Of a stretch of DNA of 42,003 nucleotides, positions 3,510 through 35,286 are shown in pieces (the stretch's first letter is position 1; every line of letters starts with the position of its first letter). The DNA is from a virus (taxonomy: Duplodnaviria > Heunggongvirae > Uroviricota > Caudoviricetes): IMG/VR virus record IMGVR_UViG_2671180896_000003, positions 1 to 42,003 of that record; one strand, given 5' to 3'. The translations under genes and the position numbers were made by a program. A model generated the notes under the pieces. The model searched no databases. It was given only the letters and a program-made list of their open reading frames with translations, and had not been told where the DNA came from.

Positions 3510-4705
3510 GAGGTCACCGTGATAGTGACGTGACTCGCAACGCATGACGCAGATTCGTCATAAGCAATATCGATATTTCCGCTTGCGACTGAGTCAGAGG
3601 ATTTGCCGATGAGCAGCTCCTGAATGTCGTAATAGCGAGCACTGCCTCCGCTTACCACGCCAAGGTTTGCCGGGGAATAAATACGACTCAGCAGAACGTC
3701 ATCGCCAATTGCCAGGCCATTTATATAATCGGCAACAGCCTGTTTTATCTGCTCGCCGATTTGAGATGTATACCCGGTAAAAACTTTCAGGGTAATGGCT
3801 ACAAAAATTGGCACATCGGTAGAACGCGAAAAACTGATGACGTGAGGATTACCGTAAGTATCCGGCACGGTGACAGAAGTTGTACCGTAAGTTGCGGTTC
3901 CCTGCCCTTTATTCCCCCTGATGGTCTGGGCGATTTCAGTCAGATCGCCGCCATCCACGATGGCAGAGATAGAGTGTGGCGGCAGCCCATTACTGTCGGT
4001 CGTGCCGGTATCATTCTCGTAGAGCTTGTGACGTGTAACCCCTGCAACGTTCACTATCGCGCCGTCCACCCCTTCAAACGGCGTGATGGAGGGTAGCGCG
4101 ACACTCTGCCCCTGCCGGATGCGCAGCTCTGCGTCGGTTTCCGCCGGGGATCCGACGGTGGCCGCCGCGGGGTTAGTTACCGAAGTCCAGCCGCGGGTCG
4201 GTGTGTTAATGGTCGTGACCGTTCCGGACAGCGCGGCCACTGCGCCGCTATTTGAGCAGGTGGCAGTGACCGTCGCCGTCCCGTCTAAACCAATTACCAC
4301 GGAAGCCGGCATGCTCCAGACCAGGCCATTCTTATCCCTGACGGAGCCATTCGAAATGGTCGTACCGGCCGCGCCGGTAAGCAGCAAATCAACCGTTGAG
4401 TTGGTAGCCGTTCTCCTTTTAATACCGTTTATTTTCACGTTCTTGCTCAGCCCTGCGCCATAAGCGGTGGCAGGCGAAAAGCTGTTGTAAACAGCAATGG
4501 CCGTGTTGTTAGCATCGTGAATAGCCAGGGCCACCAGCGCCACCATCTGCCCGTCTTTGCTGTCAGGATCCAGATAAGCATCGCTGCCATATATCTGCTT
4601 AAAGTAGTTGGTCAGGGTGTCCAGTATTGTCTGGTAATCAGGCGCGCTGATCCCCTCAGCGGTTACCGTTGCCGATAAGCCGAGCGTGTCCAAATTGAGG
4701 GCCAT
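3506..4705 (-). CDS. Baseplate J-like protein
   Basis: 399 aa; position and size match baseplate J/Mu gp47 family; directly follows gpW-like gene. Confidence 0.65.
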   Translation of the reverse strand: MALNLDTLGLSATVTAEGISAPDYQTILDTLTNYFKQIYGSDAYLDPDSKDGQMVALVALAIHDANNTAIAVYNSFSPATAYGAGLSKNVKINGIKRRTATNSTVDLLLTGAAGTTISNGSVRDKNGLVWSMPASVVIGLDGTATVTATCSNSGAVAALSGTVTTINTPTRGWTSVTNPAAATVGSPAETDAELRIRQGQSVALPSITPFEGVDGAIVNVAGVTRHKLYENDTGTTDSNGLPPHSISAIVDGGDLTEIAQTIRGNKGQGTATYGTTSVTVPDTYGNPHVISFSRSTDVPIFVAITLKVFTGYTSQIGEQIKQAVADYINGLAIGDDVLLSRIYSPANLGVVSGGSARYYDIQELLIGKSSDSVASGNIDIAYDESASCVASHVTITVTS

Positions 4706-8625: not shown

Positions 8626-10604
8626 CAGTAGACCCTCGGTTGTAGCTGCTGAGTAAGACGGGAATTAACGCCGGATTGACGATCGGCAACCTCCCGGCCA
8701 GTGGATGCCGGGTCGCTCGCGCCGTAAATATTGATGTTCGTTTCCTGGCTGATCTGCGCGGCTGCCTGCGTAGCGGCAACGCTGGCCAATGGGGAATTCC
8801 ACTGACCGTAACCTTCCTTCCTGGACATGGCCTGCAGAAGGTTGCTGAACTGCTGCGGGTCGCTCAGGTTCAGCGTGTCCTTAGCGCCCACGCCCATCAT
8901 ATTGGCTACGAAGTTCGAATAGGCCTCGGGGTCGTTGTTGTCGCTGGCAGGTGCGTATTTGTGGATGATGTCCCATATTGACTGGAGTTTTTCATACCCG
9001 GCGGCCGCGCTTTTTCCGGTGAAATAAAGACGGATCTGCCTGGCCATTGCCATCCAACCATCAAGCGGCGTCTGATGAGAGGTAAAACCGGTGCCGCCGA
9101 CGGGGCGCAGGTTGCCAGGATTGTTGTTACGGTCGGCCAGCGTCTTGCCCGGGCCGCTCTCCTGCTGGTCTGAGCCGCCCTCTTCTTTGCCGAAAATCCA
9201 CCCGTTTATTGTTTTCCCGATGCTTCGCGGGTCGAACCCCGTCTTGCCCTCTATCCAGTCAGCAGTATTGTTAGCGCTGTCAGATACTGCAGGTAGAGCA
9301 TCCTGGCCTTGCCCTTGTGCCAGCAGGTTCTTGCCGATCGCATAAGCATCTTTCCAACGCCCCTCGTTGATGGCGTTTATCAGGTCGCCAATCATCTTAA
9401 TCATCTTGCCAAACTCACCGAACTGCTTAGTGAGGTTGTCGATGTCGCCTTTAAGGGTCCAGTTTTTGAGGTTGATATTGAGCAGCTTTGCGATTTCAAC
9501 CCCTATCGCCTTCACAGAATCCCGCAGCTCGCCAAGCGATTTCAGGGCAGCCTCTATTTCTGGCTCCCATTTATCCCAGGGCAGCAGGCTTTGACCGCCT
9601 TCTTTCCAGGTTTTGTAGTCGTCGTAAAGCGCGAACAGCGCCGAGCCTAGCGCGATTACGATACCTATCGGCGATTTGAGGAACTCAGCGTTAAGCAGCT
9701 GCCACGCCGAAACCAGCCCGGACACCAGCATGATTAGCTGCTGTATATCCGGCGGCAGCTTTTTAAACCACTCAATCAGGCCGCCTACCGCCTGCGAGAC
9801 GCGCCACGCCATCTGGGTAATGACATCAGCAGCAAAGAGCACCCCCTTCACTATCTTCGTGACCACGCCCTCTATCTTCGGCCAGTTCTCCAGCATCTGC
9901 TTGCTGAGATTGTTCAGCGTGCCGCTCAGGCCGCCGGCCAGATTCGAGCCAACCTTATCGCGCAAGATCCCCAGTAGCGAAACGAAGTTGCGCATTGAGG
10001 TCATGAACTTGTTGGACTGCTGCGCGGCCCTGTCAGCATCGAAGCCTGTCTTCTGCATCATCGACTGGTATTCAGCCGTGAAGCCGGACATTCCTCGCCG
10101 CATTGCCATCAGCGTGTTTTCGTCAATGCCCAGCATCTGCGCGAACTGATTGGCTCGATAATAGGGCATGCTGCTGAGGCGCTGGCCGACGCCGGTGAAG
10201 ATAGCCGACATGTCGCGCATCTGTCCGGAAGCGTCCCGGGTCTGCACCCCCAGGCGGTTCAGGAAGCCTTCGGCGCCGGGATTGCTGCGCATGAAGCGCG
10301 CCAGGCTCTCCAGTGAGTTCTGGGCAGCCTCGGCGCTGGAGCCGGTTTGTGAGGCAGCATAGCCAAGCGCCTTGATGCCGTTGACCGATGCCCCGGTGCG
10401 TTCCGCGGCCCAGTAGAGTTTATCAAGGCCGCTGGCGATCGAGGCGGTGAAGCCCACAATGGCCAGCCCCGTCGACTCAACTATGGCCCCCAGTTTTACG
10501 ACGTTCGCGGCCACACCTTTGAGCGTGGCTTCAAACTTCGCCTGGCCCGCGCCGTCGATATCGAACCCCAGAGAGACCAGGTAATCACGGATAGTATCAG
10601 CCAT
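8625..10604 (-). CDS. Tail tape measure protein
   Basis: 659 aa, Ala/Gly/Gln-rich with predicted helical repeats and hydrophobic central segments; preceded by chaperone gene with frameshift extension. Confidence 0.75.
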   Translation of the reverse strand: MADTIRDYLVSLGFDIDGAGQAKFEATLKGVAANVVKLGAIVESTGLAIVGFTASIASGLDKLYWAAERTGASVNGIKALGYAASQTGSSAEAAQNSLESLARFMRSNPGAEGFLNRLGVQTRDASGQMRDMSAIFTGVGQRLSSMPYYRANQFAQMLGIDENTLMAMRRGMSGFTAEYQSMMQKTGFDADRAAQQSNKFMTSMRNFVSLLGILRDKVGSNLAGGLSGTLNNLSKQMLENWPKIEGVVTKIVKGVLFAADVITQMAWRVSQAVGGLIEWFKKLPPDIQQLIMLVSGLVSAWQLLNAEFLKSPIGIVIALGSALFALYDDYKTWKEGGQSLLPWDKWEPEIEAALKSLGELRDSVKAIGVEIAKLLNINLKNWTLKGDIDNLTKQFGEFGKMIKMIGDLINAINEGRWKDAYAIGKNLLAQGQGQDALPAVSDSANNTADWIEGKTGFDPRSIGKTINGWIFGKEEGGSDQQESGPGKTLADRNNNPGNLRPVGGTGFTSHQTPLDGWMAMARQIRLYFTGKSAAAGYEKLQSIWDIIHKYAPASDNNDPEAYSNFVANMMGVGAKDTLNLSDPQQFSNLLQAMSRKEGYGQWNSPLASVAATQAAAQISQETNINIYGASDPASTGREVADRQSGVNSRLTQQLQPRVY

Positions 10605-26848: not shown

Positions 26849-27058
26849 TCACCCCCAGACCTTCTGACGGAGTGACCGCGGCGTACGTTCCTGCCGGTGC
26901 GCCTCCGGCAGCCGGGCGCTGACGGTCCAGGTGACGTAATCGGGATTCAGGCTTCGCTCTACCTTCACGCCGCGGCGCCGGTATTCCGCCATGAGCTCGT
27001 CGGCCTGCTGCGTGGTGCACTCGGTGTGCTGGAACCATGTTTCTTTCATCGGCATCAC
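26849..27058 (-). CDS. Hypothetical nin-region protein
   Basis: 69 aa; start overlaps stop of upstream gene (ATGA). Confidence 0.5.
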   Translation of the reverse strand: MMPMKETWFQHTECTTQQADELMAEYRRRGVKVERSLNPDYVTWTVSARLPEAHRQERTPRSLRQKVWG

Positions 27059-27654
27059 CCCACGAAGCTCATGAGCTGCGCAGCGGCATTATCCGCGTCG
27101 CTACGGCTCTTGAATGCCCTGGACAGGATCCAACGCCACAGAACATCGAGTGCGGCCCTGTAGAGTTGCTGGAACTCGGTTTCGTCCATATTGGCGAAGG
27201 CGATGCTGCGGGGGTGTTTGCGGAGGGTGCCGTCAGGCAGCTGTATCGCGTCGTAGTGGCCGGATTCGATGGTTACCCAGGCGCGGTAGGCGTCGAATGA
27301 CTTGCAGGCGCTGATGCTGCCCGTGCGCTTATCAGCGATGCGCTCGAGATATTGCTCAGCGGCATCCAGCAGCGCCCCTTCGTTCCCGCCGTAGGAGGCC
27401 AGAAATCTGGCATAGCCGGTCACCAGCTTGCGTTCGTTGGAAGAGATCGCCCCGCCGGTTGGCTCCCAGTATTCGAACCCGAGGTTTAAAAGCGCGAAGA
27501 AGCGGCGGTGGAAAGCCGGATTGCGGACCTGTTTGAAGTCGGCTACCAGCACGGCGCCGAGTTTGATTTTTGATTGCAGAATATCGCTGGTCTCCGGCGT
27601 CGCGGGGATCAGGATTCCTGATGACTGCTTGATGAGTTGTAGTTCGTGCGCCAT
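27055..27654 (-). CDS. Hypothetical nin-region protein (possibly DUF1367-like)
   Basis: 199 aa; family assignment from memory only, not secure. Confidence 0.45.
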   Translation of the reverse strand: MAHELQLIKQSSGILIPATPETSDILQSKIKLGAVLVADFKQVRNPAFHRRFFALLNLGFEYWEPTGGAISSNERKLVTGYARFLASYGGNEGALLDAAEQYLERIADKRTGSISACKSFDAYRAWVTIESGHYDAIQLPDGTLRKHPRSIAFANMDETEFQQLYRAALDVLWRWILSRAFKSRSDADNAAAQLMSFVG

Positions 27655-27688: not shown

Positions 27689-27937
27689 TCAGACCGTTGA
27701 TTTCATATTATCAGAAGGTTGGGTTACCCGGTAGCCGAGACGGTTAATAAACTGCATAAAACCATTAGGAGTAAAGACCTCTTCATCATCCAGCAAAGGC
27801 CGCATAGAAACCATGCCATTGACGCGATAAATTAGATGCCTGCCCGATGAAGGAAAGCTAAACACCACGCAGCCGTCAGACCTTCTTACAATGTCATACC
27901 AGTTGTCTTCTGACGTTTGCAAAGCTGAATCACTCAC
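27689..27937 (-). CDS. Hypothetical small protein downstream of dinI-like gene; candidate antirepressor
   Basis: 82 aa; GTG start preceded by AGGGAGAA; same strand and immediately downstream of SOS-box/dinI-like unit with no terminator between. Confidence 0.5.
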   Translation of the reverse strand: MSDSALQTSEDNWYDIVRRSDGCVVFSFPSSGRHLIYRVNGMVSMRPLLDDEEVFTPNGFMQFINRLGYRVTQPSDNMKSTV

Positions 27938-28054
27938 ATTTATGTTCTCCCTTCGAGCGACTAACAGACGCGATTAAAGATTGTCGGCAGCAGCATCAGA
28001 GGGTTACGCAAATTGCGGTATTCTGAAAAATGCGCGCCAGCCTTAAGCGCAATT

Positions 28055-28288
28055 CTAATAAAACCAGTCGTCAGCGCTTTCCCAGGTATCCTGGAGGATT
28101 GATTCAATTTTCTTTTTATCGTCCTTGTCACCACCAAAAACACTTAACCCATCGGCCCCGGCACGGCGGATTGTGAGCCTGCAATTGTCATAGTGATCAT
28201 TCAGGCGCTTAAGCAGTTCTTTCTCCAGTGCTGGTACTGCGCCTTTAGGAAGTTCTTTCATGCGATCAATGGTTAATTCAACTTTCAT
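28055..28288 (-). CDS. dinI: DinI-like protein
   Basis: From MKVELTIDRMKELPKGAVPALEKELLKRL...ESILQDTWESADDWFY; matches recalled E. coli DinI pattern including C-terminal ETWESADDWF. Confidence 0.85.
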   Translation of the reverse strand: MKVELTIDRMKELPKGAVPALEKELLKRLNDHYDNCRLTIRRAGADGLSVFGGDKDDKKKIESILQDTWESADDWFY

Positions 28289-28306
28289 AATGGCCCCCAT
28301 TGCATG

Positions 28307-28326
28307 TACTGTGTTTTTATACAGTA
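28307..28326 (-). promoter_or_regulatory. LexA operator (SOS box) in dinI-like promoter
   Basis: TACTGTGTTTTTATACAGTA: CTGT-N8-ACAG, 19 bp upstream of the dinI-like ATG; candidate -35 TTGATC and -10 TATACT overlap it on the minus strand. Confidence 0.8.
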
Positions 28327-28388
28327 TACCTATGCGCGGAAATGATCAACGTTTTAAGAACACAAATTGTTAATTTTCTGTCAGTAGT

Positions 28389-28416
28389 AAAAAAAGAAAA
28401 CCCGCCGTAGCGGGTT
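28389..28416 (-). terminator. Intrinsic terminator (minus orientation) between accessory island and dinI-like unit
   Basis: AACCCGC-CGTA-GCGGGTT hairpin followed on minus strand by TTTTCTTTTTT. Confidence 0.6.
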
Positions 28417-28779: not shown

Positions 28780-29343
28780 TTGAAGCGAGTAGAGCGCGAT
28801 TTTATCTGTCTGTTTAATTGTGTGTGGTATCAAGATTTCCCTGTGTTCAAAGGTGAATATATCAACCGTTCCAACTGGACCATTCATGTTGGCCTGGTCA
28901 TGCGCGAGTGTGCAAAGTTAATGGGCGCAAGAACATTTTTTGAACAAGGCGGGCGTACCGATGCGGTCCTACAATATCCAGACAATCAAATTTTAACCTA
29001 TGTTGAGTGGGAGTATAATCAGGCAGACAGAGATAGCGTTAACGAGTTAGACAAACTGCTTGAAAAAAACGACAAGTGCTATTTCTCCACATTCATCTCA
29101 TATTGTCAGCATGAAAACATCAATATTGTTATTGAAAAAGCAAGTAGAATATGGAGTGAAGCAAGCAGGCCTTTGATTTTTTTTCTTATCACCTATGAGC
29201 CTCAAACGAAAAAACGCCGCCATTTTTTAGAACTCAGAACTTATTTTTTCTCAAACGGCAAAAGAAAACTAGTTCGCAAACAACCTGCGCTTCCATGGGA
29301 TATTGAGCAACGAAAATACAATGTCGAAGAAGATGCAGGATAG
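28780..29343 (+). CDS. Hypothetical protein, 187 aa, AT-rich accessory cargo (defence-like candidate)
   Basis: TTG start with GGGGGGAGG RBS; AT-rich codon usage unlike flanking phage genes; about 350 bp non-coding upstream; no family recognised. Contains YPD...YVEWEY segment that might be a degenerate nuclease motif (speculative). Confidence 0.6.
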   Translation: MKRVERDFICLFNCVWYQDFPVFKGEYINRSNWTIHVGLVMRECAKLMGARTFFEQGGRTDAVLQYPDNQILTYVEWEYNQADRDSVNELDKLLEKNDKCYFSTFISYCQHENINIVIEKASRIWSEASRPLIFFLITYEPQTKKRRHFLELRTYFFSNGKRKLVRKQPALPWDIEQRKYNVEEDAG

Positions 29344-33701: not shown

Positions 33702-33920
33702 CTACTTTGGTAATCCGTCAGTGGGATTTGGATAGAGATCAGGGCGCAGCTCGTGGGGGGTTACGCCTGTCATTTTGAAAATCGGGAAGATATAGCTTGG
33801 CGGGACGATCCCTTGGTCACGATTCTTCCAATGACTTACAGACATACTCGTCACACCAAGCGCGATGCTGAGCTTTCTGGCAGAGCCAGCGGCTTTAATT
33901 GCTTTATCGAGTGCGGACAT
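33702..33920 (-). CDS. Cro-like HTH regulator (YdaS/Cro family)
   Basis: 72 aa; HTH segment ARKLSIALGVTSMSVSHWKNR; divergent from repressor gene; RBS AGGAG 7 nt upstream of ATG. Confidence 0.65.
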   Translation of the reverse strand: MSALDKAIKAAGSARKLSIALGVTSMSVSHWKNRDQGIVPPSYIFPIFKMTGVTPHELRPDLYPNPTDGLPK

Positions 33921-34022
33921 GTGCTTCTCCTGCTTATTGATAGCAGAAGTAAACCACAGATTTATACTTCATGCAAACTTTGGATTTATTGCGTGCATAA
34001 ACCAAATATTTACAATGACCAT
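33921..34022. promoter_or_regulatory. Immunity-region divergent promoter/operator interval
   Basis: Two related about 18-bp sites TAAACCACAGATTTATAC (33950) and TAAACCAAATATTTACAA (33998) with partial dyad symmetry; PRM-like -35 TTGCGT / -10 TACAAT ending 6 nt before the cI-like ATG (possible leaderless mRNA). Confidence 0.5.
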
Positions 34023-34758: not shown

Positions 34759-34764
34759 TAATTG

Positions 34765-35286
34765 ATGGATGCGGCTCAATCATCTCTTGGTGAAGGGAAG
34801 TTATTGATTGCATATTCAGACCATAGCGGAGCTACAGTAGGCTTAGAGTTTTCATCAGTAGCTTCGAGCCAAGCAACCTTCCTTATGGGTGCTTGTAGTT
34901 TTGCCGCTTCGGATAAACAAAAACGGATTGTCACATCAGTTGCTATGGATGATACTGAAATCATTCATACGTCAACTGAAGATGGAGGTGACGACATGGA
35001 AAAGAGATTGGCTATTCTTGAGGTTGAAGTTGCCCACATCAAGAAAGATGTTGCCGAGATAAAAAACACAGTTTCAAAAGTTGATACGACAGTGAATTCA
35101 CTGGACAAAAATATGGCTGTAGTTTTGGAGAGGCTGTCTAGTATCAAAGAGTCTGTAGACAAAAAGCCCTCATCAGACACAGTGGACAAGAAAATCTCTG
35201 ATGCTAAATTGGCGATTCTCTTAGGTGTCCCTGCGATTATCGCCATTGGTACAGGGCTGTACAAAGCTTTTATGCACTTCTTTTAG
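34765..35286 (+). CDS. Hypothetical membrane-anchored coiled-coil protein, gene 2 of repressor-linked cassette
   Basis: 173 aa from ATG 34765 (RBS GAGGAA); N-terminal about 75-aa domain, central coiled coil (LAILEVEVAHIKKDVAEIKNTVSKVD...), C-terminal transmembrane segment LAILLGVPAIIAIGTGLYKAFMHFF. Confidence 0.6.
   Translation: MDAAQSSLGEGKLLIAYSDHSGATVGLEFSSVASSQATFLMGACSFAASDKQKRIVTSVAMDDTEIIHTSTEDGGDDMEKRLAILEVEVAHIKKDVAEIKNTVSKVDTTVNSLDKNMAVVLERLSSIKESVDKKPSSDTVDKKISDAKLAILLGVPAIIAIGTGLYKAFMHFF

Follow-up and report, generated by a model that had tools for sequence, protein, structure and literature searches.

How does a prophage respond to DNA damage when its repressor has no domain for self-cleavage? 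The question is raised by a 42,003-nt stretch of viral DNA (IMG/VR record IMGVR_UViG_2671180896_000003, hereafter the window), in which a LexA operator is followed by a dinI-like gene and an ORF of 82 aa. By analogy with the Gifsy prophages of Salmonella, the first-pass annotation proposed that the small protein is an antirepressor of the short repressor encoded in the same window.

Anatomy of the dinI unit

Three E. coli chromosomes, PSJ-22, ES7 and NCTC11023, are 99.9% identical to the window over a 2-kb test segment. The PSJ-22 annotation displays a lambdoid prophage flanked by kch and yciI and, judged from this 99.9%-identical locus, the window prophage appears to be integrated at kch/yciI in E. 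coli. Genes of the PSJ-22 prophage include an integrase, RecE/RecT, an HTH repressor, Cro- and YdaT-like regulators and replication genes, as well as a nin-type region with RusA and Q, and lysis, head and tail genes. The dinI-antirepressor unit is encoded on the minus strand, in the direction of early-right/late transcription, and reads in the order terminator, promoter/LexA box, dinI, spacer, 82-aa GTG ORF and DUF1367/irsA (Table 1). The same gene order is found in the Gifsy dinI-antirepressor-irsA operon (PMC3121763). We searched IMG/VR with the 5' primer sequence of gfoA, the Gifsy-1 antirepressor gene, and then with the family alignment; relatives of the 82-aa protein are encoded on at least 393 contigs, and 80 of these loci were analysed. 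In 80 of 80 loci the antirepressor gene is flanked by dinI and DUF1367. Among 5426 complete E. coli genomes, 75 match the 2-kb region around the 82-aa gene.

Table 1. Coordinates of the dinI unit and of the repressor region in the window.
Feature	Position	Strand	Remarks
irsA homologue (DUF1367), 199 aa, third gene of the unit	27055..27654	-	Pfam PF07105, E = 6e-93
Predicted antirepressor gene, gfoA/gfhA type, 82 aa	27689..27937	-	GTG start at 27937
dinI-antirepressor spacer, 117 nt	27938..28054	-	Conserved; hairpin and palindrome inside
dinI homologue, 77 aa, first gene of the unit	28055..28288	-	Pfam PF06183, E = 4e-26
LexA operator (SOS box) TACTGTGTTTTTATACAGTA	28307-28326		Gene strand reads TACTGTATAAAAACACAGTA
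Putative sigma-70 promoter P_dinI	28323..28349	-	-35 TTGATC (28349-28344), 15-nt spacer, -10 TATACT (28328-28323)
Intrinsic terminator, AACCCGCTACGGCGGGTT then TTCTTTTTTT	28399..28416	-	Terminator scan; 7-bp stem, 5 GC pairs
Cro/YdaS-like regulator, 72 aa, first early-right gene	33702..33920	-	phrog_35, 4e-21; divergent from the repressor
Direct repeats (family D1) TAAACCAnAnATTTA, two copies	33950-33964 and 33998-34012		Repressor-cro intergenic, 48 bp apart
Prophage repressor, GfoR/GfhR (DicA-like) family, 129 aa	34023..34412	+	Predicted antirepressor target

The canonical LexA operator that had been reported 19 bp ahead of dinI is present at the coordinates of Table 1, with a gap of 18 nt between the box and the dinI ATG (28288). 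It is the sole match in the 42-kb window to TACTG(TA)5CAGTA at ≤3 mismatches (shuffled sequences, 0 of 100) and also the sole CTGT-N8-ACAG. Each of the 80 related loci has a CTG-N10-CAG box, of which there are 13 sequence variants; it lies upstream of dinI at a distance of 18-19 nt in 79 loci and of 35 nt in the remaining one. The dinI genes of Gifsy-1 and Gifsy-2 have one SOS box each, 19 bp from the ATG, and nalidixic acid raised their expression 23- and 14-fold (PMC8072944). The -10 element of the putative P_dinI overlaps the LexA box, and alignment reveals the same geometry in the promoters of Gifsy-1 and of Gifsy-2. We base the tentative assignment of P_dinI on this alignment because a consensus scan, which requires a spacing of 16-18 nt, called no sigma-70 site at P_dinI, where the spacing is a non-optimal 15 nt. 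Immediately upstream of the promoter lies a strong terminator that insulates the SOS unit from early-right transcription. In each of the three Gifsy prophages, too, a Rho-independent terminator-like palindrome lies ahead of the LexA box (Lemire et al., PMC3121763). A moron-like gene, a 187-aa ORF (28780-29343, plus strand), points away from the dinI promoter and runs antisense to early-right transcription; searches of Pfam, PHROGs, NCBIfam and PADLOC gave it no match, and PGAP names it 'hypothetical protein'.

The dinI-like assignment of the gene downstream of the box is borne out by its Pfam DinI match, which scores 91.5 bits against a gathering cutoff of 24.2. The NCBIfam DinI match (3.7e-26, 91.4 bits) lies under the 111-bit equivalog cutoff. 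PGAP annotates a 'DinI family protein' with the 77-aa start MKVELT, and the ORF list adds an 81-aa version from 28300. The 82-aa ORF was described as following on the same strand with a good ribosome binding site, and we indeed find AAGGGAG 9 nt upstream of its GTG. Variable sites among its 34 DNA alleles are distributed over the three codon positions as 22/11/55, a coding signature indicating purifying selection. The DUF1367 gene follows after 34 nt; its N-terminus, MAHELQLIKQS, is the sequence encoded by the Gifsy-1 irsA deletion primer pp644.

The first-pass annotation had also stated that no terminator intervenes between dinI and the 82-aa ORF. This does not strictly hold, since the terminator scan finds a weak terminator-like hairpin followed by T5 in the spacer (28051-28033; 6 pairs, 7-nt loop); a Gifsy spacer of ~92% identity is, however, read through. 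When P_BAD replaced the region upstream of dinI, Gifsy-2 became arabinose-inducible (PMC3121763), and strain D23580 produces no Gifsy-1 owing to a single SNP in the -10 of P_dinI-gfoA (PMC5322425). It has thus been demonstrated for Gifsy that transcripts begun upstream of dinI extend into the antirepressor gene (PMC3121763; PMC5322425), and by this analogy the hairpin would attenuate expression at most.

The spacer is the best-conserved segment of the locus, with nucleotide identities of 86-100% in 64 haplotypes, and it also contains an 11-bp palindrome, CGCAATTTGCG, at 28007-28017. It is ~92% identical to the spacer of LT2 Gifsy-1 and Gifsy-2, although the antirepressor type downstream differs there, and the 5' part of dinI drops to ~63% identity in the same comparison. 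In comparisons that span both E. coli and Salmonella and both antirepressor types, the spacer exceeds the genes on its two sides in conservation. It may act as an attenuator or a processing site, setting the threshold of SOS induction, or serve as a linker for the exchange of antirepressor-allele cassettes. A structured RNA was also considered and found unsupported (stability z = 0.35; no Rfam match).

The 82-aa protein and its relatives

The Gifsy antirepressors are products of a small ORF with a non-canonical start, namely GftA from Gifsy-2, GfoA from Gifsy-1 and GfhA from Gifsy-3 (PMC3121763). We reconstructed the ends of GfoA from the primer tables of that study (PMC3121763). Primers le175/le117 encode ATG-AGT-AAT-TCA-GCT-TTG-CAA-AAG, or MSNSALQK, at the N-terminus, and primers le163 and pp867 give the C-terminal end RRLGYRVTPPSDI; the window ORF reads MSDSALQT...NRLGYRVTQPSDNMKSTV. 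One viral contig, L073, matches exactly six Gifsy-1(14028) primers, namely pp754 (upstream of dinI), pp752 (LexA-box region), gfoA 5', le108/le101 (gfoR 5'/3') and pp644 (irsA 5'), and matches le163 at 38/40. The antirepressor encoded by this contig is LSNSALQKSEDSWYDIVRRSDGCVVFSFPSSGRHLIYRVNGMVSMRPLLDDEEVFTPNGFMHFIRRLGYRVTPPSDNMKSTA, and the window protein is identical to it at 70 of 77 residues (91%) over the length of GfoA. Because the antirepressor identified by these primers is so similar, the 82-aa ORF is an orthologue of gfoA/gfhA. Furthermore, the isolated coliphage mEp237 encodes a 96% identical copy (gp49) in the same context.

The alleles differ at both ends of the gene. The window ORF starts with GTG, as against TTG in the Salmonella alleles among the analysed loci, and encodes 82 aa, as against the 77 aa ending in SDI that the 14028 primers imply. 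Those gfoA primers end TCTGATATA (SDI, then the tag), and the window (27700-27712) and all loci analysed read TCTGATAATATGAAA (SDNMKST-); the gfoA 3' primer sequence had 0 exact matches in IMG/VR. The 14028 allele thus appears to differ by a 1-nt indel that gives SDI-stop instead of SDNMKSTV. The last five residues seem dispensable, as GfoA of 14028 would be 77 aa long.

The 82-aa protein had no match in Pfam (E ≤ 0.01), NCBIfam or PADLOC, and it falls in phrog_340 and phrog_1813, both listed as 'unknown function'; with no matching model and no label in PHROGs, the first-pass annotation could not recognise it. The ANT and KilA-type (Bro-N/KilAC) domains of large antirepressors like P22 Ant were likewise absent from it (Pfam, E ≤ 0.01). 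A Foldseek search of the PDB with its AlphaFold model (pLDDT 66) gave no match, the best E being 2.6.

LT2 phage records carry only the GftA type, and GfoA and GfhA have been described as 'more distantly related' to GftA (PMC3121763). Pairwise BLASTP between the 82-aa protein and the GftA of LT2 Gifsy-1 and Gifsy-2 found nothing (E = 0.94), and the two fall in different PHROGs (4847 for GftA). Four results nevertheless point to distant homology between GftA and the 82-aa family. Alignment of the two family profiles with hhalign gave 58 co-linear columns over the full length (P = 1.4e-4, probability 53%). When the profile of the 82-aa family was used by itself in an exhaustive search, 42 representatives were reached. 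One of them, the protein P0082, bridges the two families with a direct match to GftA at E = 3e-8. In the AlphaFold models, each family displays four strands and then a helix at matching positions, at modest confidence (pLDDT 66 for the 82-aa family and 59 for GftA). Set beside the known Gifsy antirepressors, the window protein aligns directly with the reconstructed GfoA, and with GftA only by profile and by way of the bridging protein. Synteny, the 91% identity and the family of the repressor all support the Gifsy analogy from which the antirepressor assignment had started; for the E. coli prophage we infer antirepressor function from this orthology.

The short repressor and its candidate operators

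The claim that the cI-like repressor has 129 aa and lacks a LexA-like autocleavage domain agrees with our analysis. In Pfam, HTH_3 is the sole match above the curated cutoff, and a Peptidase_S24 domain (the type with a Ser/Lys dyad and an Ala-Gly cleavage site) gave no match at E ≤ 0.01. PGAP prefers a GTG start at 33993, giving 139 aa; at either length (129-139 aa) the C-terminus is ~50 residues and helical. A sequence search of the PDB with the repressor returned low-complexity ubiquitin artefacts only.

Primers le108/le101 give the GfoR termini MKEKTHQ... and ...EKYMKGRIRTRED, which identify the repressor of L073, and primers le110/le111/le103 give those of GfhR (MTKVKHH... or MSDNTL..., and ...AKYMSRRIKGEGA), which identify the GfhR-class alleles. 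The window repressor is ~62% identical to GfoR (L073 and L014) and ~73-75% to GfhR-class alleles, and is a different immunity allele from both. Over the full length it is 26% identical to GftR/GtgR (E = 3e-7), and it is 28% identical to DicA (E = 5e-12), the C-terminal LPE-EQ helix included. Among 67 repressors recovered beside GfoA-type antirepressors, 66 belong to the window family at near full length, the exception being one GftR.

Comparison of the 43 distinct repressors that neighbour GfoA-type antirepressors revealed two halves of unequal conservation. The HTH half (residues 1-66) has a mean pairwise identity of 61% (minimum 39%), and residues 67-118 have a mean of 88% (minimum 69%); the variation in operator specificity is therefore carried on a C-terminal module that is conserved. 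The C-terminal half of the window repressor is 73-100% identical to that of all alleles travelling with a GfoA-type antirepressor. In the repressors of the window and of loci L014-L093, only the last ~10 residues vary freely. This conservation suggests a shared docking or dimerisation module, and the near-invariant half may be the surface on which the antirepressor docks. Such docking would account for the ability of a single antirepressor type to serve many immunity alleles, and it would fit the published observation that both heteroimmune repressors are inactivated by GfoA as well as by GfhA (PMC3121763). If true, one GfoA-type protein could fire many heteroimmune prophages at once. The joint reading, in which the C-terminal half is the docking surface and the spacer is a functional element, is tentative, and we put it a little short of an even chance.

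Between the repressor gene and the divergent Cro/YdaS-like gene, the two TAAACCAnAnATTTA repeats are candidate operators of the window immunity type. PGAP names the Cro/YdaS-like gene 'transcriptional regulator', and it co-occurs with the repressor in related loci. Downstream of the repressor and on the same strand lies a 174-aa ORF (34762-35286, plus strand), which may be an accessory gene expressed in lysogeny; its faint PADLOC matches to LmuB-like coiled-coil regions (E ~1e-3) probably reflect compositional similarity.

A proposed induction switch and competing explanations

Together, these results make it very probable that this segment serves an E. coli lambdoid prophage of the Gifsy type as its induction module, in which a LexA-controlled antirepressor inactivates a short, non-cleavable repressor. 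The anatomy of the module, the uniqueness and conservation of its box, the orthology of both partners to Salmonella proteins and the lack of an S24 domain are established here. In Salmonella, the Gifsy repressors are not cleaved and lexA3 blocks induction (PMC3121763). P_BAD-driven gfoA or gftA induces prophage, and GftA releases GtgR from DNA (PMC3121763); a complex has been demonstrated for GfoA-GfoR, and a complex together with a gel shift for GftA-GtgR (PMC3121763). By extension from these experiments, the window unit would be under LexA control and co-transcribed through the spacer, and its product would physically inactivate the window repressor.

In the lysogen, host LexA would bind the SOS box over the -10 of P_dinI and keep the dinI, gfoA-like and irsA genes silent, the upstream terminator shielding the unit from other transcription. 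Upon DNA damage, RecA-stimulated cleavage of LexA would allow the unit to be transcribed. The 82-aa protein would then accumulate and form a complex with the dimer of the short HTH repressor, which would be released from its operators (the TAAACCAnAnATTTA repeats being the candidates), and the early operons would be derepressed. As the repressor would not be destroyed, such a switch would in principle be reversible and open to cross-talk with other prophages. The specificity of an antirepressor for its repressor is not predictable from sequence, as illustrated by GtgR, which is insensitive to GfoA (PMC3121763), and by the locus L075 (IMGVR_UViG_2724679262_000001). In the latter a GfoA-type antirepressor (10001-10246) accompanies a repressor (3785-4192) that is 100% identical to GftR/GtgR. 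L075 looks like a naturally mismatched pair and may depend on another prophage for its induction.

Such mismatches lend some weight to an alternative in which the antirepressor acts mainly in trans on co-resident prophages, or is a mismatched passenger, and the window prophage is induced otherwise. Cross-talk of this kind is documented, as GfoA and GfhA act on heteroimmune repressors and Fels-1 FsoA induces Gifsy-2 (PMC3121763); L075 and the indifference of GtgR to GfoA document mismatch, and the locus is mosaic. Yet the window repressor, at ~74% to GfhR, is closer to it than GfoR appears to be (66.4% similarity, PMC3121763), and both of these are inactivated by GfoA and GfhA. The high identity of its C-terminal half to alleles that travel with the antirepressor, and the 66 of 67 neighbouring repressors that belong to its family, further argue against this alternative, which we regard as improbable.

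We consider it more improbable still that the spacer hairpin truly terminates transcription. In that case LexA control would be confined to dinI, and expression of the 82-aa gene would come from antiterminated early-right transcription, its product reinforcing induction, like RstC or FsoA, and not triggering it. The hairpin does resemble a terminator and carries its T5, and the strong conservation of the spacer suggests a function, but the stem is weak, with few pairs, a 7-nt loop and only 5 T, and its T-run is broken in 5 loci. Moreover, the essentially identical Gifsy spacer is transcribed through, as seen with P_BAD upstream of dinI and with the P_dinI -10 SNP, and the strong terminator at 28416-28399 would stop early-right read-through unless this was antiterminated. 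Least probable of all, in our judgement, is that the ORF is a nin-region gene with an unrelated function or none, its similarity to GfoA being without consequence in E. coli. In favour of this reading, the protein has no Pfam, NCBIfam or PADLOC model, no PDB structural match and an uninformative PHROGs label, but against it stand the 91% identity to an experimentally validated antirepressor, the purifying selection on its codons, a synteny fixed in 80 of 80 loci and the presence of the module in coliphage mEp237.

The predicted induction module of the E. coli prophage is thus the orthologue of a system characterised in 2011 in Salmonella, whose mechanism was worked out there. Lemire et al. (2011) had already pointed out homologues and a conserved dinI-irsA region in Escherichia (PMC3121763); our search of the available literature library found no publications specifically on the E. 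coli version. The biological gain is small, and the practical value lies in annotation, as the family has no functional label in the libraries tested and RefSeq names the 82-aa gene 'hypothetical protein'. Naming the antirepressor family would flag prophages as SOS-inducible by a reversible, cross-talking route and not by repressor cleavage, which bears on the prediction of prophage induction by DNA-damaging antibiotics.

Among known systems, GfoA/GfhA of Gifsy come closest, sharing with the window the operon layout, the distance of the box from dinI and an antirepressor of 91% identity. Their repressors GfoR and GfhR are of the same family as that of the window, with a short HTH protein, a helical C-terminus and no cleavage domain. 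The differences include the host, here E. coli, and the repressor allele (~62% to GfoR, ~74% to GfhR). GftA-GtgR(GftR) of Gifsy-2 and LT2 Gifsy-1 resembles the window in position, control and spacer (~92% identical), and GftA shares distant homology and the predicted fold topology with the 82-aa protein, its repressor GftR being 26% identical to that of the window. However, GftA has no pairwise BLASTP similarity to the window protein and belongs to PHROG 4847 as against 340/1813, and the specificity of the two types differs, since GtgR is insensitive to GfoA.

Rem-DicA of the cryptic prophage Qin in E. coli K-12 (PMC10448788) also consists of a small antirepressor (83 aa) that relieves a short DicA-type repressor, but unlike the window it has no linkage to dinI or LexA (PMC10448788). 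The published link to Rem runs via a PSI-BLAST chain; hhalign of Rem against the 82-aa family profile detected no similarity (P = 0.37). Tum of coliphage 186, with the split tum genes of PSP3 and Fels-2, and AntC of N15 are antirepressors under LexA control and bind a repressor that is not cleaved, as in the Gifsy type, and differ from the window in phage type (P2-like for Tum, N15 for AntC). From the self-cleaving repressors of the lambda CI and LexA type, which carry an S24 peptidase, the window repressor is set apart by the lack of that domain. Tum, like the window unit, links antirepressor and DinI-like sequences; in Tum the two are fused, with the DinI-like part behind the antirepressor part, whereas the window has them as separate genes, dinI leading (PMC3121763).
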